A DNA stretch of 32,977 bases from a virus (Duplodnaviria; Heunggongvirae; Uroviricota; Caudoviricetes), in IMG/VR virus record IMGVR_UViG_2713896908_000011, positions 1 through 32,977 of that record; one strand, given 5' to 3'. A program made the position numbers and the translations under genes. The notes under the pieces were generated by a model. It was not told the DNA's origin. It did not search any database and was given only the letters and a program-made list of their open reading frames with translations. This document shows, one piece after another, positions 14,421 through 32,977 of this stretch (its first letter is position 1; each line of letters starts with the position of its first letter).

Positions 14421-14902
14421 AAACAGACTTCACGCTCAATCTCACGGCGAGTCATCAGGCCTTTCCATTGCTTACCGCCAGCATATGTCCAGCGACGTAA
14501 CTGGTCACATGCCCCTTTGATATCACCCTGGTTTATTTTGCGAAGAAGAGTCGATGTTCTGAAATTGCCTGCACCCACATTATAGACGAACGAGTAAAGA
14601 GCGCCGCGCGTTGTTTCCGGTATATCAACTTTGATGTACGGGTTAATTTGCCTGGCGACCGTGGCAAGGTCTTTATTCAGGAGGGCTTTGCATTCTGCTT
14701 CGGTATACGTTTTACCGAGCATAATGTCTTTTCCGGTGTGCCCGTAACATACAGTCCATACGCCAACGATATCTTTATATGGTATGTAGCTGACACCTTC
14801 CAGACCATCGTCACCACTCGGACCAGTGATGAGCACAGACGCTATGGCAACAGCCCCACCACCAATAGCAGCTGCAACAGCCTTGCGTAATGATGGCGAC
14901 AT
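14405..14902 (-). CDS. R: SAR endolysin (phage 21 R21-type lysozyme)
   Basis: N-terminal Gly/Ala-rich weakly hydrophobic segment [20 protein letters not shown] typical of a signal-anchor-release domain, followed by a T4-lysozyme-like domain. Directly follows a pinholin gene (ATGA overlap at 14902). Confidence 0.85.
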
Positions 14903-15117
14903 TATTCACCTCTCGCAGCCTTACGCTTATCTTCTTTAATCTTGAAATAAAGGTTTGTCAGGTACGTCAGCAAGCCAAATACCAAGCTCCCCAGCACACC
15001 AATTGCAGCCCACTGTGACGGAGTTACTTTATCGAGTAACTGCAGTGCCCAGAAGCCGGCATTACCTGCCGATGTGCCATAGGCGACACCTGTTGTTAAC
15101 TTATCCATTGATTTCAT
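14902..15117 (-). CDS. S: pinholin (phage 21 S21-like) with dual-start motif
   Basis: 71-aa sequence [31 protein letters not shown]...[22 protein letters not shown] is nearly identical to S21 as I recall it. Met1 and Met4 give the antiholin/holin dual start; two TM segments. Confidence 0.9.
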
Positions 15118-15338
15118 ATCCTCACCCCGATGTACACGGATGGTGCAATATGTTTGAAAAGATCGGAGTCTACGGGTTATTTTTTACAGCAAACGTTGTT
15201 CTCAACGACGCTCAAAAAATAGAAGCTTAAAATAATGCGGTTAAATATTTTAAAAGAAAAACCATCTATTAAATAATAATGCGGGATATATTTTTCTATT
15301 TAGTGTACTGTATACGGCCATTTATACAGGAAAAGCCT

Positions 15339-15509
15339 ATGTCAGAACGTAAAGACTCAAAATCACGCCGTAATTATCTCGTAAAATGTTCCTGCCCAAA
15401 CTGTACCCAAGAATCAGAACACAGTTTTTCTAGAGTACAAAAAGGTGCCCTTTTGATCTGCCCTCATTGCAACAAAGTATTCCAAACAAATCTTAAAGCT
15501 GTTGCCTGA
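15339..15509 (+). CDS. small zinc-ribbon protein (CxxC...CxxC), function unknown
   Basis: Start set at the internal ATG preceded by AGGAAAAG (MSERKDSKSRRNYLVKCSCPNCTQ...LICPHCNKVF...). Two CxxC pairs; opposite strand to the flanking late genes. The track ORF starts at 15279. Confidence 0.5.
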   Translation: MSERKDSKSRRNYLVKCSCPNCTQESEHSFSRVQKGALLICPHCNKVFQTNLKAVA

Positions 15510-15568
15510 GTGTTTTGATTACTTACAAAGAGTTTTTATATTTTAATAATATATTTAAATCAGATAAT

Positions 15569-15593
15569 AAAAAACCCGCCTGCGCGGGTTTGA
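15569..15593 (-). terminator. rho-independent terminator downstream of the cold-shock gene (possibly bidirectional)
   Basis: Hairpin CCCGC-CTGC-GCGGG flanked by an A-run on the plus side, so on the minus transcript it is followed by UUUUUUAUU. Confidence 0.6.
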
Positions 15594-15790
15594 GATTGTG
15601 GTGCTTTTTGTGGTAGTTACCCACTTACGCACTTTGTATTGCTATGCCAGCAGTTAGCTTCTACTGTAAAACTATTCATGCAGCAAACCTGCACTTCACC
15701 ACAAAATGGGATTCAATACCCACAACTCTATCTGCATCTCTACTCAGGCATCAGCCTTCTTCGTTATCGTATACAGACAAGCTATGAATT

Positions 15791-16006
15791 TTAATCAGTA
15801 ATAATGACATTTGCTGCTGCAGGACCTTTAGCACCACTCTCTACAGAGAAGGTAACCTTTTGGCCTTCAAATAAGGTTCGATAATTATCATTCTGAATTG
15901 CAGAAAAATGCACAAACACATCTTTACTACCATCAACAGGAGAAATAAAGCCAAAACCTTTATCAGCGTTAAACCATTTTACTAAACCAGTCATTTTATT
16001 TGACAT
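15791..16006 (-). CDS. cspB: cold-shock protein, CspA family (CspB-like)
   Basis: [53 protein letters not shown]... carries the RNP1 (KGFGFI) and RNP2 (VFVHF) motifs and matches E. coli CspB (a Qin prophage gene) as I recall it. AAGGAA Shine-Dalgarno is present. Confidence 0.9.
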
Positions 16007-16170
16007 TCTACATTCCTTAACTTGAGCCTTTCGGCATAAATGATTTGTATAACAGAAACGACTTCGTACTTAATTGGAGAGACTCAAAGAAGGAATAAGT
16101 GAATAACACCTGAAATGAGAACTGCTTTAGTAAACTACTTCGTATATCGTCTGTTCTTCAAACCGACGCT
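16007..16170 (-). promoter_or_regulatory. long 5' leader of the csp gene with cold-box-like element
   Basis: CspA-family mRNAs have ~160-nt structured leaders. The minus-strand sequence here contains GAAGAACAGACGAUAUACGAAG, reminiscent of the cspA cold box (UGACGUACAGA). Boundaries are approximate. Confidence 0.4.
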
Positions 16171-16247
16171 GTCATTAACGCATAGTTGTACACCTGGAAG
16201 CAATGTTTATTTTAGACATCCAGCCATCTCCCCATTTAAAACACAAA

Positions 16248-16267
16248 AACCCGCTCATTAGCGGGTT
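16248..16267 (-). terminator. candidate tR'-like terminator downstream of PR'
   Basis: Perfect hairpin AACCCGCT-CATT-AGCGGGTT flanked by A- and T-runs; on the minus transcript it is followed by UUUUUGUGUUUU. About 50 nt downstream of the predicted PR' start. Confidence 0.55.
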
Positions 16268-16314
16268 TTCTACTTTTTCTCAACACCGGACATACAAAGC
16301 CCATTGTTGAGAAA

Positions 16315-16343
16315 ATTTTATCCATGTTTTTTGAAAAATGCAA
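16315..16343 (-). promoter_or_regulatory. candidate late promoter PR' (sigma70 -35/-10) just downstream of Q
   Basis: Minus strand reads TTGCAT - 17 nt - TAAAAT (-35 at plus 16338..16343, -10 at plus 16315..16320), 30 nt downstream of the Q stop, the canonical PR'/qut position in lambdoid phages. Confidence 0.5.
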
Positions 16344-16374
16344 ACATCATGTCGATATCTTCGGCGAAAATTAT

Positions 16375-17127
16375 TTATCTTGTCACTTTTCTCAACAGTG
16401 CTTCTGCATATGCTTCTTCCTGCCAGCACTTTGTAACCAGTTTATCAATAACATCAGCATACCCCTTGTACCACTGATAATCCGTCAGGTCCGGTACCAG
16501 TTTCTGGACATGATGCCGCGCCAGTGTGGTTGGTAAACGGCTAAACCGATTTCCATTGCAACGCCCACAAATCTTATAAACCGGCGTGCCATGAAGCCGG
16601 GTTCTTTTTTCATCCAGGACAATACCTTTACCCTTACACCCTCTGCACGCTGTGCTGACTTCTCCCTTACCATGGCAATGCTGACATAGTTCCTTCACCC
16701 ACTCTTCCTTGATAACAGATTCCCCGCTTCTGGAGTGTTTCACCACTTCGCGCAATACATTATGAAATCCAGTACCAGCACAATGCTCACAGCGAGCCTT
16801 ACTTGCCGCAGACCTGGAATAATCAGCAAAGGCAAAATTCACAAGGTAAGGGATGATCTGTAACCGGGTTTCTTCACTCAATTTATTCAATGTCGGGTTA
16901 TCCAGTGCCATCGCGTAATTGAGCAGACCTTCGATCGCAAACTGAGGATCCTGAACACCAACTTTTGCCAGGAATAAGGCAAAACCCAGTGGTGCTTTCG
17001 ACTGCACCATCCCCTGCGCAGCCATCACATCTGTAATTGTTAAACCACCCGAGCCTGTCGCCGGTGCGTCATCACTCAATTTTGGAGATTTTGGGGAGTA
17101 ATATTTTGGTAAGGCTTCAAGGTTCAT
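16375..17127 (-). CDS. Q: late-gene antitermination protein Q (phage 21/82-type family)
   Basis: 250 aa with multiple CxxC pairs (CEHCAGTG, CQHCHGKG, CRGCKGKG, CGRCNG) typical of zinc-binding Q proteins; positioned between the early/replication genes and the lysis genes. Confidence 0.8.
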   Translation of the reverse strand: MNLEALPKYYSPKSPKLSDDAPATGSGGLTITDVMAAQGMVQSKAPLGFALFLAKVGVQDPQFAIEGLLNYAMALDNPTLNKLSEETRLQIIPYLVNFAFADYSRSAASKARCEHCAGTGFHNVLREVVKHSRSGESVIKEEWVKELCQHCHGKGEVSTACRGCKGKGIVLDEKRTRLHGTPVYKICGRCNGNRFSRLPTTLARHHVQKLVPDLTDYQWYKGYADVIDKLVTKCWQEEAYAEALLRKVTR

Positions 17128-27986: not shown

Positions 27987-28604
27987 ATGAACGCTATTAC
28001 TAAAGAACGTATTGAATTATTCATTAAAAATCCGTTTGAAAACGGACTTACCCATGGCGAACAAATGGAACTGGCACGGATTGCGCTGGCATCGTTGGAA
28101 GCAGAACCGGTGGCATGGCTGCATTCAGACAATGGATTAGGTATTCCAGCAATAACCAGGAGTAAAAACATTGCTGACAGTTGGTTATCAAAGGGCTGGT
28201 ATGTTCAGCCGCTATATATAGCCAAGCCAGTGCCGGTGGTGCCAGATGCTCTTCCGTCTTTAAATAATGGCATAGTCGGCTTTGATGAAGGCTGGAACGC
28301 CTGCCGCGCCGCCATGCTTCGTGGTGCCAAACCTGTAAGCCAGACTTACAAGTTGAACGAGCTGTCGGGCAACTCTCCGGTAACTCCGGATGGTTGGATA
28401 AGCTGTAGTGAGCGAATGCCGAACGATAAACAGTATGTTTGGTGTTGGGGGAAGTCTTACGGCTGGACTGAGTGCGATACCTTCGAAGGGTATTACGATT
28501 GGTCGAGAAACAAATGGTGGGCAGTTACTGACAATGGGGAAGAACCGGCATCGAAAGTAACCCACTGGATGCCGCTACCGGAACCGCCGCAGGAGGTGAA
28601 GTAA
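27987..28604 (+). CDS. DUF551-domain protein
   Basis: C-terminal ...VTHWMPLPEPPQEVK is the characteristic DUF551 ending, with Trp-rich CxW repeats upstream. Confidence 0.7.
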   Translation: MNAITKERIELFIKNPFENGLTHGEQMELARIALASLEAEPVAWLHSDNGLGIPAITRSKNIADSWLSKGWYVQPLYIAKPVPVVPDALPSLNNGIVGFDEGWNACRAAMLRGAKPVSQTYKLNELSGNSPVTPDGWISCSERMPNDKQYVWCWGKSYGWTECDTFEGYYDWSRNKWWAVTDNGEEPASKVTHWMPLPEPPQEVK

Positions 28605-28798
28605 TGAACAACTTAATGACAACTAAACAAGTCGCCGACTTCTGTGGCGTTTCAGTATCGACCGTTCTTCGCTGGAACAGCGTAAACAGGAGAACTGGCC
28701 AGAAATACAGGCCTGAGTTTCCAGATCCGGATATTAAATCCTGCCCAAATAAATGGGCATCACACAAGATATACAGATTTGCTGGAATTATTGAGTAG
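28604..28798 (+). CDS. xis: AlpA-family HTH protein, putative excisionase
   Basis: 64 aa with GGAGGTG Shine-Dalgarno and a 1-nt overlap with the upstream stop. MTTKQVADFCGVSVSTVLRW...FPDP...W fits the AlpA/Xis-type HTH pattern; last gene of the early-left operon, nearest the integrase. Confidence 0.6.
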   Translation: MNNLMTTKQVADFCGVSVSTVLRWNSVNRRTGQKYRPEFPDPDIKSCPNKWASHKIYRFAGIIE

Positions 28799-29353
28799 TA
28801 GCTATTAGTTGACATCACTATATGGATAAATGGTTATTTAATATTTTCCTGAAAGATACAAGAGAAAATGTCCCGAGCCCCAAAAGGGTAAAGTCATCGG
28901 CTGATACCAAGAAATACAATATGTTAATGGTAAGCGAAGTGTAGGCCTGAAAGCAGGAGTGTAAAGTAGCGACATATGGAAATATTAAGGTTCTCAAGGA
29001 AGAAAAGTAGAATGTGTCAAGTAATGATCGTGCCCCAAGTCAGCAACCCAAGAATCGTGACTGGGCTGATGCTCCTGCCACCACACAAGGTCAGGAGCAG
29101 TGGTATAAATAGGGCAGAATAAGCTAAATTGCTGTGTTCTCATTCGGTAATAATACTATCTGCATTAATGATTTAATATATTCATGAGCATTATTAAGTT
29201 GTGTTTTGTGTTAATTGAAACTCAAAATTAATGAATTTTCTTGGGTTATGTTTTTTTTCAATAACAAACCTCTTATTAATTAATTTGAGTTTTTATTTCA
29301 ATACTGATTTAAGACTCGTTAAAGCTTTAGTATTTTTATCAACAACAAAACCA

Positions 29354-29390
29354 AGCCGTTCTTGAGCATGGCTAAGAACGGTATTTTTAT
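29354..29390 (+). terminator. candidate rho-independent terminator at the end of the early-left operon
   Basis: Hairpin CCGTTCTT-(10-nt loop)-AAGAACGG (29356..29381) followed by TATTTTTAT; the reverse orientation is also followed by a T-rich tract, so it may be bidirectional. Confidence 0.5.
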
Positions 29391-29487
29391 ACTCAAGAAA
29401 TCGTATCCACATGATTTAACTAAGTTTTTCAACCTCACCCACCAACAAAATTTTTGTGCTGGACGACGTGTAGTCTGTATACCAATC

Positions 29488-29517
29488 TTGGTTTAATTGT
29501 ACTATCATTCGTAGAAT
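29488..29517 (+). promoter_or_regulatory. candidate sigma70 promoter for the three-gene cassette
   Basis: TTGGTT (29488..29493) - 18 nt - TAGAAT (29512..29517), about 30 nt upstream of the AGGAG Shine-Dalgarno and ATG at 29547. Confidence 0.35.
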
Positions 29518-29546
29518 GAAAAGAACAGCATATTGATAGGAGACAC

Positions 29547-30656
29547 ATGGAAAACAAGACCAATAAGGAAAAAAGTGTAAGAATTAGGCTGGCTTTTAAA
29601 AGATGGCAGCGAAGTGTTTCCCGTCAAGGGAAAGAGTATTCGCAGTTTCGTCAACAAAAAAAATCTCAAAAGAAAAAAGATAATACCTTTATTCGGTTTC
29701 CATCTGAGTTTTCAATATATTCACCAGATAAGCCTAATTTTTTTGCGCACTCTCTACACTCGATAAATCACGTCAGGAATAAAAAATACAATCCTGATGA
29801 GAGATTATATTTAGATTTTACAAATACAAAAACAATAAAAATGGCAGCATTAGTAATACTTTATGCCAGTGTTGAAACTTCAATTCGTAAAGGTTTATCG
29901 TACAGATTATTATTTTCAACAGATTTTAAAGTCAATCAGCTTTTAAGAGACTCGGGTCTTGTCGCCTTATGTCGGGGCGAAAAATTAAAACCTGTCTTCG
30001 AAAACGTTGAAAACTTGCCCATTATTAGCGGGGTAGGAGGAGAATATAGAGATGAGATTATAGATTTCATCCAGAAAGAAATTTATAAAAACAAGATGAA
30101 ACCTGAAACAGAACATACATATGCAGATGCTGTTCAGGAAGCAATAAATAATGTTGGTTTACACGCCTATCCGCATAAAAATAATGATGAGAAACGATGG
30201 TGGCTTGCATGTCACGTAATTCATGACCAGCTGTATCTTGCTATATATGATGAAGGTGTTGGTATACCTGAAACTGTAATGCAAAAGACATGGTTTATGA
30301 GTACGCTCAAATCAAAATATCCAGATCTAAAGGTTGCGGTTAACGAAGAACTTGAGAGAATAGGTTTAGGTTATAAAGAGCGCTCTAAAGTAAAAGTTGG
30401 TATTGTTTCTGATGCAGTAAAAATAGCAATTTCTATGATTGGAGACGTAACCGGTACAGCCAATGATAAACATGGTCAAGGAAGTAAGAGTATTAAAGCT
30501 CTAGTACTAAATAATGAACATGGAAACCTTTGGATTTACAGTAATTTAGGTATGTTCAAGCTTTCTAATAAGAAAGGTGATAAAATTAATGAGTTAACTC
30601 ATAAAGTACCAGGTACTTTAATTCAGTGGAACATCAAGGTCAGCTATGAAGACTAA
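29547..30656 (+). CDS. GHKL-superfamily ATPase/kinase, RsbW/SpoIIAB-like (anti-sigma-factor-type HATPase_c) with novel N-terminal domain
   Basis: 369 aa with AGGAG Shine-Dalgarno. Bergerat-fold motifs in the C-terminal half: N-box AVQEAINNVGLHAY (compare EA.TNA..HAY of RsbW/SpoIIAB), G1-box IYDEGVGIP, G2-like ERIGLGYKE. The N-terminal ~190 aa are Lys/Arg-rich and not recognised. AT-rich codon usage. Confidence 0.7.
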   Translation: MENKTNKEKSVRIRLAFKRWQRSVSRQGKEYSQFRQQKKSQKKKDNTFIRFPSEFSIYSPDKPNFFAHSLHSINHVRNKKYNPDERLYLDFTNTKTIKMAALVILYASVETSIRKGLSYRLLFSTDFKVNQLLRDSGLVALCRGEKLKPVFENVENLPIISGVGGEYRDEIIDFIQKEIYKNKMKPETEHTYADAVQEAINNVGLHAYPHKNNDEKRWWLACHVIHDQLYLAIYDEGVGIPETVMQKTWFMSTLKSKYPDLKVAVNEELERIGLGYKERSKVKVGIVSDAVKIAISMIGDVTGTANDKHGQGSKSIKALVLNNEHGNLWIYSNLGMFKLSNKKGDKINELTHKVPGTLIQWNIKVSYED

Positions 30657-30978
30657 AAACATCAATGTTATCAAAGACTTCAACAGTAAGCCTTACGGGC
30701 GCTATCCAGACGATGGGGCAGGCTGTGGGGAAAACTTTCGCAAATATCTGGCAGGCTTTCTCAAAGAGTATGATTTAGTTCATGTTGAGTTGACTGGATA
30801 TAACCGTTATGGGCGTTCATTTATTGATGAAGCGTTTGGTGGCTTGATCCGAGTAGAAGGCTACACATTAAGCGAACTTAAGAAAAAACTAACTTATACT
30901 CATAAAGATATTAAGAGTATTGAGACCTTGATTGATGAACGATTGAATAAGGCAGAGAGTGATGCAGGAAGAGGTTAA
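30646..30978 (+). CDS. DUF4325/STAS-like small protein (putative anti-anti-sigma-type partner of the GHKL protein)
   Basis: 110 aa, ATG overlapping the upstream gene by 11 nt. Core VHVELTGYNRYGRSFIDEAFGGLIR matches the DUF4325 STAS-like pattern (LDF.GV...S.SF.DE.FG.L) as I recall it. Confidence 0.6.
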   Translation: MKTKNINVIKDFNSKPYGRYPDDGAGCGENFRKYLAGFLKEYDLVHVELTGYNRYGRSFIDEAFGGLIRVEGYTLSELKKKLTYTHKDIKSIETLIDERLNKAESDAGRG

Positions 30979-31456
30979 TTATACAAGTATTGTGATTGCT
31001 ATAATTGGTTGGCTTGTTGCGTCTTATTTCAACAATAGAGCATTCAAGCGAAATGATATTTCAAGGCAAAAGGATAAAATCTGTCAGCAAATAGAATCTC
31101 TTTTTGATAATGTTTTAGATAAGCTCTCTTCTAGAGATACTAAAGAATTAGAGCTGGATAATTTTTTAGCCTCCAGTGTCTCATTAATTGAAATGCAGCT
31201 GTCTCATTTATCACAAAGGATTGGTAAGAAATTATTATGTGATGAACAGTTGTCATCTATCAGATCAACACCTTTAGACTTGTTAAGCAAAAAGTGTGAT
31301 TATAAAAATGAACTTCATGAGATGAAGTATTCAATATTAGAGGAAATTGAAGGTAATTATACAAAATGGTTTTTTGATAGTTACTCAAAAAGATTCAAAT
31401 CCATCTTTGCATCAAAAAGAAGCACACCTAATACTGATCTGAATAGACTATCTTGA
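30962..31456 (+). CDS. single-pass membrane protein (candidate effector of the cassette)
   Basis: Overlaps the upstream stop by ~17 nt. N-terminal TM helix (SIVIAIIGWLVASYF) followed by a ~140-aa helical soluble domain with no recognisable motif. ATG at 30962 preferred over the GTG at 30959. Confidence 0.6.
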   Translation: MQEEVNYTSIVIAIIGWLVASYFNNRAFKRNDISRQKDKICQQIESLFDNVLDKLSSRDTKELELDNFLASSVSLIEMQLSHLSQRIGKKLLCDEQLSSIRSTPLDLLSKKCDYKNELHEMKYSILEEIEGNYTKWFFDSYSKRFKSIFASKRSTPNTDLNRLS

Positions 31457-31462
31457 TAAATA

Positions 31463-31482
31463 GCGCCTTGCATTCAAGGCGC
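31463..31482. terminator. hairpin between the convergent cassette and integrase (possible terminator)
   Basis: Perfect 8-bp stem GCGCCTTG-CATT-CAAGGCGC, 7 nt after the cassette stop. The following tract is A-rich on the plus strand and weakly T-rich on the minus, so direction is ambiguous. Confidence 0.4.
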
Positions 31483-31753
31483 AAACAAAAACAACATTAG
31501 AAATCAACACATTAATAACACACGCATCTCAGTTAACATTTTTAACTATATTTTTACACATATAATCAAGAAAGAATGTTAAATTATAAGAGATAATTTA
31601 GAGAGTGTTTCATAAATTTAAACAAAATAAGTTACTTATTAAGCATATTTTTTTAAAGTGTATTTTACCCCCATTATCCAACAGATATTTTGAGGTCTAG
31701 TTGTCGCTCAAAACGGACAGTCAGATTTTATTTCGTTCTAGCTATGCAAACGG

Positions 31754-32977
31754 TCAGTTGGGGTCTGAGCTAATACAAGCAACTATCAATTCAACCCTCT
31801 CCCACCATACCTGGTAGGCTTTACGCTGTTCTTCTAGATAATCGCTCTTGTCATAAACCTGCCATCCCCCTGGCAACTTATGACCAAGCATAATTTCTGC
31901 AATATGAGGCGCAGTAAGATCAGAAAAGTTTGTTCGTGCTGTTCGCCTCAAATCATGAAGAGACCAATGAGGGAATTGATACCCCAAACGTCGCCATGCG
32001 AACTGCATTAAATTGTAAGGCAGCGACTGCAATGATGTCCGACCAACTGGCTCCCTGCTTCCTTCCTTAGTAAAAAGCATATCGGAACCGTTGTTCATAG
32101 AGATAACGTATTTTATAAGCTCTTCAACCGGCCCAATAATGGGCCGCTTTAGTGGTTCGCCTGTTATCTCCCCTGTCTTATGTCGTTCTGGCGGTACAGT
32201 CCATACCTTATTAATGAAATCAAAATCGTCCACCCTAGCGGTAATTAGCTCTGAACTACGGCAGCCAAAATGCAACAATAGTTTAATGAAGGCCCGGTAT
32301 TTAGGAACCATTCGAGAACCATCGATCGCAGCATAAAGGATTTTAATTTCATCATGTGTCAGAAACCGTTTCTTCTGACCTTTACGGATATCCATATCTT
32401 TACCTGTGATATCCGACAGCGGGCGAGTTTCAATGAGCTTTCTCTTATACGCCCAGACATGGGCCTGCTTTGCGTTAATTAGCAATCGGTCAGCTATTGC
32501 TGGAGTCTTAGTGCTAAGAGGCTCCAAGACCTCTAACCAATCATGCAATGTAGCTGCATCGTGAGGGATACTCCCGATTTTAGAGAACAGGTGCAGTTCA
32601 AATGAGCGGAGTATCTGCTCAGCACCTTTTTTATTTTTTACACAATATGCTTCATACCAAGCACGGATCACAGACTCTACAGTCATGGCTTCAGTAGCTT
32701 TGCGTTTTTCTGCCTGCTTGACCAATCGTGGATTGCGGTTTGACTCGAGTTCACCACGGAGACGGATAACTTCTTCTCTGGCCTCTTTTAATCCAGTTGC
32801 CGGGTAAGTTCCGATATCAAGACGCTCACCTTTCCCTGCCCATTGATAACGATATTGGAACACTACGCGACCTTTCGGTGATACTCTGACAGACAGACCA
32901 TCACGATCGGATTTAACCAAAACCTTATCACGTTCCTTTCCAACAACTGAACGCAACCACGCATCAGACAGCGCCAT
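31754..32977 (-). CDS. int: tyrosine-type site-specific integrase (P4-like, with N-terminal arm-binding DUF4102-like domain)
   Basis: 407 aa. N-terminal MALSDAWLRSVVGKERDKVLVKSDRDGLSVRVSPKGRVVFQYRYQW... is P4-integrase-like. C-terminal catalytic elements HDLRRTART (HxxR) and a Tyr in ...GGWQVYDKSDYLEE. The ATG sits exactly at the window edge, so the true start may lie beyond. Confidence 0.9.
   Translation of the reverse strand: MALSDAWLRSVVGKERDKVLVKSDRDGLSVRVSPKGRVVFQYRYQWAGKGERLDIGTYPATGLKEAREEVIRLRGELESNRNPRLVKQAEKRKATEAMTVESVIRAWYEAYCVKNKKGAEQILRSFELHLFSKIGSIPHDAATLHDWLEVLEPLSTKTPAIADRLLINAKQAHVWAYKRKLIETRPLSDITGKDMDIRKGQKKRFLTHDEIKILYAAIDGSRMVPKYRAFIKLLLHFGCRSSELITARVDDFDFINKVWTVPPERHKTGEITGEPLKRPIIGPVEELIKYVISMNNGSDMLFTKEGSREPVGRTSLQSLPYNLMQFAWRRLGYQFPHWSLHDLRRTARTNFSDLTAPHIAEIMLGHKLPGGWQVYDKSDYLEEQRKAYQVWWERVELIVACISSDPN

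Follow-up and report, generated by a model that had tools for sequence, protein, structure and literature searches.

A kinase-STAS-membrane protein operon related to VapKSC in the excisionase-integrase defence hotspot of an Escherichia coli lambdoid prophage

The closest described relatives of the locus examined here, CapK-CapS and VapKSC, were both reported in 2026 (Chambers, Rani, Min, Villa & Corbett, EMBO J 2026; PMC13373217; hereafter Chambers et al., 2026). CapK, which combines helix-turn-helix (HTH), STAS and GHKL kinase domains, is switched on by single-stranded DNA (ssDNA) and phosphorylates a conserved serine on CapS, a repressor made of a STAS domain and a winged helix-turn-helix (wHTH) domain. 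VapK, a STAS-GHKL protein, phosphorylates the antitoxin VapS (a STAS domain with a C-terminal tail) at S48, freeing the PIN toxin VapC; the VapKSC system, which lies close to further defence genes, lowers infection by phage Bas42 by approximately 2 logs (Chambers et al., 2026; PMC13373217). The search by which VapKSC was collected explicitly required a vapC gene, and the paper mentions neither membrane effectors, nor DUF4325, nor the gene family described below (PMC13373217). In this study, we analysed 32,977 nucleotides of viral DNA from E. coli (positions 1 to 32,977 of IMG/VR record IMGVR_UViG_2713896908_000011; this whole stretch is referred to as the window) and found that the AT-rich cargo lying between the excisionase (xis) and integrase (int) genes is one operon of three co-directional, overlapping open reading frames (ORFs), A, B and C. 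The initial annotation, in which this segment was described by its composition, missed the identity of the cargo: a conserved operon, related to VapKSC, that encodes a kinase, a STAS protein and a membrane protein and lies in a defence hotspot.

Gene A (29547..30656, plus strand; 369 aa) fuses an N-terminal STAS domain to a GHKL kinase domain of the SpoIIAB/RsbW type. Family searches with A alone returned only sub-threshold HATPase hits in Pfam and weak RsbW and SpoIIAB hits in NCBIfam, and none of its 240 homologues across the Gammaproteobacteria has a precomputed Pfam domain; when 79 homologues were scanned against Pfam, HATPase_c was detected in 30 and STAS or STAS_2 in 5. Invariant motifs of the Bergerat fold stand out when 79 homologues are aligned (E198-x3-N202-x3-H206-A-Y-P, D235-x-G-x-G-I-P, H-G310-Q-G-S-K-S-I and G-T-x-x-Q-W-N-I), the catalytic GHKL motifs (N-box Asn, G1 and G2) are intact, and residues E198, N202, H206, D235, G237, G239, G310 and G312 are invariant in the 79 aligned sequences. 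Other residues invariant in the family include the aromatics Y58 and F91. The best structural matches of A are SpoIIAB, RsbW and SiaB. Two further helical elements mark the protein: residues 3-26 form a basic helix at the N-terminus, and an insert of about 45 aa separates the G1 box from the G2 box. It is speculation, but the basic helix and a Lys-rich linker would be compatible with nucleic-acid sensing; no HTH family was hit in A or in its 79 homologues. In one strain that carries the operon, A is annotated with a shorter start, giving a protein of 351 aa.

Gene B (30646..30978, plus strand; 110 aa) overlaps A by 11 nt and encodes a STAS-like protein of Pfam family PF14213 (DUF4325), with a score of 28.8 bits against a cut-off of 23. 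Its block LxGYNRYGRS58FxDEAFGGLIR is invariant in 24/24 homologues, with Ser58 opening a conserved helix block, and the protein also has a conserved C-terminal helix. We consider B the putative substrate of the kinase, or the putative switch of the system. A literature search for DUF4325 returned no relevant paper. Separately, B (30646-30975) matches just the C-terminal 100 of the 441 positions of phrog_5816, a PHROG of unknown function (E = 5e-13); the DUF4325 domain may be fused to a larger protein in some phages, a possible Rosetta-stone clue to its partner.

For comparison with the described system, the sequences of VapK (302 aa) and VapS (116 aa) were taken from the AlphaFold3 source files of PMC13373217. 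By BLASTP, A and VapK are 26% identical over 151 aa of the kinase domain (E = 5e-4), and the E-x3-N-x3-H spacing is the same in both. Alignment of the A-family profile to VapK with hhalign gave a probability of 85% (E = 5.8e-6, 234 columns) and was collinear over both domains (A 87-369, VapK 45-292), while a profile of the sister and distant kinases introduced below reached 96% (E = 4.5e-9, VapK 21-287). VapS is itself a PF14213 protein, at 62.7 bits, and so falls in the Pfam family of B. Judged by these profile and family matches, the A-B pair is a distant homologue of VapK-VapS, and A is not a close member of the VapK group. The two operons share an order of three genes in which a STAS-GHKL kinase is followed by a small STAS protein and then by a third protein, and VapS, a DUF4325 protein like B, has a conserved serine that opens helix alpha-2, from which the serine of B is offset by one column, and ends in a short helix. 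They differ in that A is 67 aa longer than VapK, the basic N-terminal helix and the helical insert being its own, and in the third gene, which encodes the VapC PIN nuclease there but a membrane-anchored helical protein here. In CapK-CapS, likewise, a kinase is paired with a STAS substrate in the manner of SpoIIAB/SpoIIAA, and the pair is tied to bacterial immunity. However, CapK has an N-terminal HTH domain that A lacks, CapS represses a downstream operon by means of its wHTH domain whereas B consists of DUF4325 only and has no DNA-binding domain, and in the window only C follows B before the convergent int gene.

A search of PDB sequences with A, B and C returned nothing, and the models of PADLOC v2 (PADLOC-DB v2.0.0) gave no hit to A or B and just LeoBC, at E = 0.014, to C. 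In the literature searched, CapK and VapK are covered by the Corbett-lab study only; the DefensePredictor paper has HATPase just in a two-component-like predicted system and does not mention the A-B-C trio. As far as we found, A-B-C is thus a VapKSC/CapKS-like operon with a different third gene that is absent from PADLOC v2 and from the literature searched.

That third gene, C (30959..31456, plus strand; 165 aa), overlaps B by 20 nt and starts with GTG at 30959, where RefSeq takes the ATG at 30962. The protein begins with a hydrophobic helix (hydrophobic segment at residues 6-24) containing an invariant G-W pair (W18), continues with the basic stretch R-x-x-R-R-x-E-x-S-K-x-K-D-K and ends in a helical domain. 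The enterobacterial form has a single transmembrane (TM) segment; C is homologous across hosts, and most non-enterobacterial homologues carry a second, C-terminal TM helix. In the AlphaFold2 model (predicted local distance difference test score, pLDDT, 81), a long helix (residues 8-57) is followed by three helices that form a bundle, and Foldseek found no match to this model in PDB at E <= 1e-3, the nearest being generic helical bundles (best E = 0.06). No Pfam family was consistent across 22 homologues of C, and C has no PIN or other nuclease hit; the scattered single hits below threshold (Vpu, Pam17, CdvA, RseC and others), inconsistent across the 22 homologues, were treated as composition artefacts. 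A match to the holin family phrog_4237 was marginal (E = 7.5e-4, 20.3 bits, residues 6-40), and no single stretch of it passed by itself. C is the putative effector of the operon.

The three genes travel together. At every locus with a complete A, B and then C lie directly downstream on the same strand as contiguous, overlapping genes (27/27), C being split into two ORFs at one of them (locus L029). These 27 loci comprise four from Pseudomonas aeruginosa, two from Vibrio, three from Providencia and 18 from further species, with hosts that include Yersinia, Edwardsiella, Hafnia, Haemophilus, Shewanella, Methylophaga and Marinobacterium; a partial copy was found in an alphaproteobacterial metagenome-assembled genome. 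Between the two E. coli variants, the ratio of nonsynonymous to synonymous substitution rates (dN/dS) is 0.08 for A, 0 for B and 0.12 for C, from few substitutions. In all loci examined the trio occupies a cargo position of a mobile element: it adjoins an integrase in Vibrio and, at the mutS locus, in P. aeruginosa; in lambdoid prophages of Providencia it separates the lysis genes from the terminase; and in Yersinia ruckeri, Edwardsiella and Hafnia it directly follows a P4-type integrase on the 3' side. The 122 larger ORFs that neighbour it at 18 reference loci include 6 integrases, 4 S24 repressor-type peptidases, 2 lambda P proteins, 3 Septu PtuA ATPases and 2 DNA methyltransferases.

Beyond these close relatives, an exhaustive profile search with the kinase yielded 121 clusters at 50% identity with E <= 1e-30, 1,634 with E <= 1e-10 and 2,569 with E <= 1e-3. 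The trio is kept in distant or sister branches, namely in Marinobacter phage AS1, on two Vibrio plasmids and at two metagenomic or genomic loci, each time as an A-like kinase, a DUF4325 protein with a G-S-S-F-L-E-E-x-F-G-G-L block and a small third protein. What these third proteins have in common is their build only: an N-terminal hydrophobic segment, often Trp-rich, a basic stretch, a helical domain and sometimes a C-terminal TM segment. Either the evolution of the third gene is very rapid, or look-alikes have taken its place again and again. On the Vibrio alfacsensis plasmid plas4 (L037, 243-5185), the trio adjoins MazEF, an antirestriction gene and an FRG-domain gene, with which it makes up a small cluster of conflict genes; the plasmid is mobilizable.

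Two of these loci, which belong to unrelated temperate phages or prophages, place the trio beside the lysogeny repressor. In phage AS1 (L035, 2393-4771), it begins 45 nt after a Phage_CI_repr gene, and at locus L041 (3223-5886) it begins 5 nt after a repressor gene with HTH_3 and Peptidase_S24 domains; in both cases the trio is co-directional with the repressor gene, which is divergent from cro. Because the trio stands directly behind a cI-type gene, this arrangement implies that it would be co-transcribed with the repressor in AS1 and L041. A gene for a LuxR/GerE-type regulator comes after the trio in AS1. In lambda, rexA and rexB sit directly downstream of cI and are co-transcribed with it in lysogens, and their products, a cytoplasmic sensor and a membrane protein, depolarise the membrane on infection. 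The trio resembles RexA-RexB in this position behind cI, as seen in AS1 and L041, and in pairing cytoplasmic sensor or switch proteins with a small inner-membrane protein; it differs in having a kinase-STAS switch and no sequence or fold relationship to the Rex proteins, and in that the copy in the window lies in the xis-int slot and not behind cI.

The slot itself is sharply delimited. On its left stands xis (28604..28798, plus strand), which matches phrog_1553 (E = 4e-35) and is annotated as an excisionase in phage cdtI; on its right, convergent with xis, stands int (31754..32977, minus strand), a tyrosine integrase with a P4-type arm-binding domain (Pfam Arm-DNA-bind_3, Phage_int_M and Phage_integrase) that is conserved beside yjjG in approximately 700 E. 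coli genomes. The replaceable cassette between them (28798..31705) is as AT-rich relative to the flanking phage genes as had been proposed: the GC content of 28799-31705 (2,907 bp) is 0.336, compared with a mean of 0.504±0.041 and a minimum of 0.424 for 518 equal-sized intervals from the remaining window (z = -4.1). In a 500-bp sliding profile, GC drops to 0.31-0.36 over 29001-32000, against approximately 0.50-0.57 in the structural genes, and codon usage shifts in the same direction, the GC content at third codon positions (GC3) being 0.27 in A and C and 0.37 in B but 0.41 in int, 0.47 in xis and 0.50 in the DUF551 gene. BLAST comparison with three sibling loci that hold different cargo places the left junction at 28795-28797, the xis stop, where homology with the siblings ends; homology restarts at 31706-31730, on the 3' side of int and 24-48 nt away from its stop at 31754. 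Of the borders initially drawn at 28799-31753, the left one is therefore correct and the right one is off by at most about 50 nt. We also considered that the AT-rich region might be no more than the 3' untranslated regions of the convergent xis and int genes, and rejected this, as it holds three conserved, intact genes.

A megablast survey of 28604-32977 against 5,426 complete E. coli genomes found the flanks in 700 and the full segment in six (five enterotoxigenic E. coli (ETEC) isolates from pigs and one isolate from a cat). The host element, a lambdoid, KplE1/cdtI-like prophage of E. coli, adjoins yjjG-rimI-holD and has yfdP/Q/R-type early genes upstream. In prophages that are otherwise near-identical, the xis-int interval holds different cargo, with more than 10 different annotated occupants across the flank-carrying genomes. 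The annotations, taken from a spread sample of 60 of the approximately 700 genomes, include the dGTP triphosphohydrolase family, HD-domain, CHAT-domain, TPR, AIPR-family and DUF6602 proteins, a RefSeq 'anti-phage dCTP deaminase', insertion sequence (IS) elements and various hypothetical proteins. PADLOC confirms the dGTPase found in the slot (E = 9e-105) and assigns the 710-aa orf33 that occupies it in phage cdtI to the Borvo system, as its BovA protein (E = 2e-241). Because its occupants in sibling prophages include the dGTPase, Borvo and other defence genes, the xis-int slot is a defence hotspot with sharp, conserved borders; we found no description of the slot of this yjjG-integrating lambdoid family as a hotspot in the literature searched. 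P2- and P4-type elements contain established prophage and satellite defence hotspots. The present slot resembles these in its conserved flanks, its variable AT-rich interior and its single defence system per element, and differs in that the occupant seen here matches no PADLOC v2 model. As a separate observation, made on the window (28604-32977), on loci L002, L003 and L004 and on the sampled genomes, the convergent xis and int genes create a transcriptional dead end between them, and many of the at least 10 annotated occupants are labelled 'hypothetical'.

The cassette is also younger than its surroundings. Between the window and EC416 (L038), the most divergent E. coli copy, the synonymous divergence (dS) of the cargo is 0.015-0.027, 5-9x lower than the 0.137 of the adjacent int gene; on this estimate, the acquisition or exchange of the cassette is therefore more recent than the backbone, which is what recombination in the flanks would be expected to produce. 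The same contrast implies a recent transfer of the cassette between diverged prophage backbones. Foreign composition, a site filled by this cargo in 6/700 flank-carrying genomes and a cargo younger than int all agree with the proposal that the segment is a horizontally acquired moron, which stands because the composition differs and the site is variable. In five of the six carrier genomes (as at positions 2381-3001 of L001, from ETEC1730), annotation gives the DUF551 gene upstream as a partial gene or a pseudogene and leaves out xis; the carrier prophages may be partly decayed.

Upstream of A lies a cargo-specific, non-coding leader of 748 bp (28799..29546, plus strand), for which no homology was found in E. 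coli beyond the six cargo genomes. No conserved ORF was found in it, its 44-codon ORF at 29231 being broken by a 2-bp indel in EC416, and Rfam returned no match on 28500-32100 other than a sub-threshold hit of a Staphylococcus sRNA on a hairpin. The first third of the leader (28799-29130) has a GC content of 0.40, compared with 0.30 in the rest, and differs from EC416 by a 32-bp indel near 28940; an older occupant, or the donor element, may have left it behind.

Both of the hairpins that had been reported to bracket the cargo are present and are far more stable than shuffled sequence. The first, part of an intrinsic-terminator-like element upstream of the operon (29355..29392, plus strand), has a stem of 10 pairs (29355-29382) followed by ATTTTTAT, with a folding free energy (dG) of -14.8 kcal/mol (z = -4.1); EC416 has it with 100% identity, although the leader around it diverges, and it would insulate the operon from read-through from xis and the early-left genes. 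The second, a G+C-rich hairpin of 8 pairs, 6 of them G-C (31463..31482), lies 7 nt past the stop codon of C (dG -14.0 kcal/mol, z = -5.9, plus strand). It was scored as terminator-like on the minus (int) strand only, where it would stop the convergent int transcript; it is possible that it is also the 3' end of the A-B-C mRNA. Between the first hairpin and the start codon of A is the candidate sigma-70 promoter TTGGTT-18-TAGAAT (29488..29517, plus strand). The sequence and position claimed for this promoter hold, whereas its statistical support does not: it agrees with the consensus at 8/12 positions, below the filter of our promoter scan, and promoter-like sites are not enriched in the AT-rich region (10 found, 12.1±3.3 in shuffles). 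In the EC416 copy, the -35 element and the spacer are conserved and the -10 element is TAGTAT. As the promoter of the operon it is plausible but unproven. The support for the proposed independent transcription of the segment and its expression in the lysogen is circumstantial, consisting of the conserved terminator upstream of the operon and of the place of the homologous trio behind cI in two other phages.

The reading that we favour, with a probability of roughly 0.6, is that A-B-C works by abortive infection or exclusion, gated by its kinase and carried out by an effector at the membrane. In its favour are the defence genes that share the slot, the distant homology of A to VapK, the DUF4325 family and invariant Ser58 of B, the strict linkage of the three genes, their place in cargo positions of mobile elements, the low dN/dS and the precedent of VapKSC. 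In the scheme that we infer from the comparison with VapKSC, B would hold membrane-anchored C inactive in the uninfected lysogen until an infection cue activated the STAS-GHKL kinase A; for VapK and CapK the activating cue is ssDNA (PMC13373217). A would then phosphorylate B on or next to the invariant Ser58, and phosphorylated B would release C, which, once freed, would depolarise, permeabilise or block the inner membrane, so that the infecting phage would be stopped at the cost of the cell, or would be excluded.

Several observations weigh against this scheme. The third genes of the distant and sister branches (L035, L037, L039 and L041) have no detectable similarity to C, so that the label 'effector' is an assumption. 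C itself lacks any signature of a toxin, pore or nuclease, and the marginal holin match and the Pfam hits below threshold are the only hints that it gives. When the aromatics that contact ssDNA were compared (VapK F54, CapK W68), F54 of VapK aligned with T96 of A, in a column that is variable in the A family, and the trigger is therefore not transferable from VapK. Ser58 of B lies one column after Ser48 of VapS in both the hhalign and the MAFFT alignment, and the profile alignment of B with VapS is weak (E = 0.006); the DUF4325 proteins of the distant branches have Ser-Ser at these two columns. The cargo is carried by just 6 of the 5,426 E. coli genomes, none of its three proteins has a significant match in PADLOC v2, and the operon promoter is a weak candidate. 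Finally, AT-rich foreign DNA is often silenced in E. coli by H-NS.

A broader proposal can be attached to this one, to which we give less than even odds and which should be taken as tentative. The trio would be one branch of a large class, on the order of 1,600-2,600 kinase clusters at 50% identity, of phage- and plasmid-borne immune switches in which a STAS-GHKL kinase would phosphorylate a DUF4325 protein and so free a small, fast-evolving protein that collapses the membrane. Such switches would be found recurrently in moron slots, the one behind cI among them; they would correspond to lambda RexAB with a kinase as the gate, and would extend the principle of VapKSC from nuclease to membrane effectors.

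Among the alternatives to a kinase-gated defence system, the one that best survives the evidence is a toxin-antitoxin or stress module, in which the kinase would sense DNA damage or another global stress and release C, phage protection would be incidental, and the role would be stabilisation of the prophage by addiction, or modulation of host physiology or of prophage induction. The authors of the VapKSC study themselves describe the boundary between immune and stress pathways as blurred and report many CapK/CapS-associated operons with no shown anti-phage role (Chambers et al., 2026; PMC13373217), the trio stands beside MazEF on a Vibrio plasmid, and its place between xis and int in the window could plausibly influence excision. 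Yet the identical slot in sibling prophages holds bona fide defence genes, and the autonomous movement of the trio among unrelated slots and elements fits poorly with a role tied to the excision machinery of one prophage. We consider such a module unlikely.

Somewhat more doubtful again is superinfection exclusion at the membrane without killing, where C, its activity tuned by A and B, would stop incoming phages at DNA entry or at an early step at the membrane. The small size of C, its predicted inner-membrane anchor and the prophage location of the trio would all suit this role, as would its position downstream of cI in two phages, the place of rexAB in lambda. To our knowledge, however, exclusion proteins act constitutively, and an ATP-dependent kinase-STAS switch is more complex than any of the known ones; VapKSC, the only characterised relative, works by toxin release.

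The structural matches of A to SpoIIAB, RsbW and SiaB, the weak NCBIfam hits to RsbW and SpoIIAB and the STAS-like fold family of B could also be taken to indicate a classical partner-switching regulator, with A as the anti-sigma or anti-regulator kinase, B as its antagonist and C as a membrane sensor or anchor, that would control the transcription of host or prophage genes. The likeness to SpoIIAB-SpoIIAA and RsbW-RsbV extends to the folds of kinase and STAS protein, but A has its STAS domain fused to the kinase, its partner B is a DUF4325 protein and not a canonical STAS protein, and the module is phage-borne and mobile. Moreover, neither a sigma factor nor a PP2C phosphatase is found in the cassette or among its constant neighbours, the cassette has no DNA-binding domain, B and C are the sole constant partners of A (27/27 loci), and movement between hosts as different as Pasteurellaceae and Pseudomonas argues against a host-specific target. 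This makes a partner-switching regulator very improbable. That the ORFs are decaying, non-functional AT-rich junk in a recombination scar between convergent genes, as might be thought from the rarity of the cargo (6 genomes), the partly pseudogenised genes upstream and the 748-bp non-coding leader, is effectively refuted by the conservation data: the three ORFs are intact, conserved across classes and marked by invariant catalytic motifs and low dN/dS, their structures are predicted with confidence, and their starts and stops overlap as is typical of a translationally coupled operon.

Elsewhere in the window, a second AT-rich island (15001-16500, GC 0.379) occupies the classic moron slot between Q and the lysis genes. 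Between a Q-like antiterminator (16375-17127) and the holin (14902-15117), it carries a cold-shock gene of the CspA family on the minus strand (15791-16006) and, on the plus strand, a small Cys-rich ORF (15279-15509).

In summary, the finding of the A-B-C operon is not categorically new; it offers a directly testable extension of a recently described mechanism to a new class of effector. If the defence reading is correct, the kinase-STAS switch first described in 2026 for CapK/CapS and VapKSC would be a general, modular trigger that is carried by phages and coupled to different effectors, the effector here being a novel family of membrane proteins without known relatives, and the defence repertoire of E. 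coli prophages would gain a system that PADLOC v2 does not detect. The xis-int interval of this very common prophage family, present in approximately 13% of complete E. coli genomes, would be a rich and sharply bounded hotspot for mining such systems, and the recurrent place of the trio behind cI would open a route to how lysogens express them, as well as a testable parallel to the long-puzzling Rex system.

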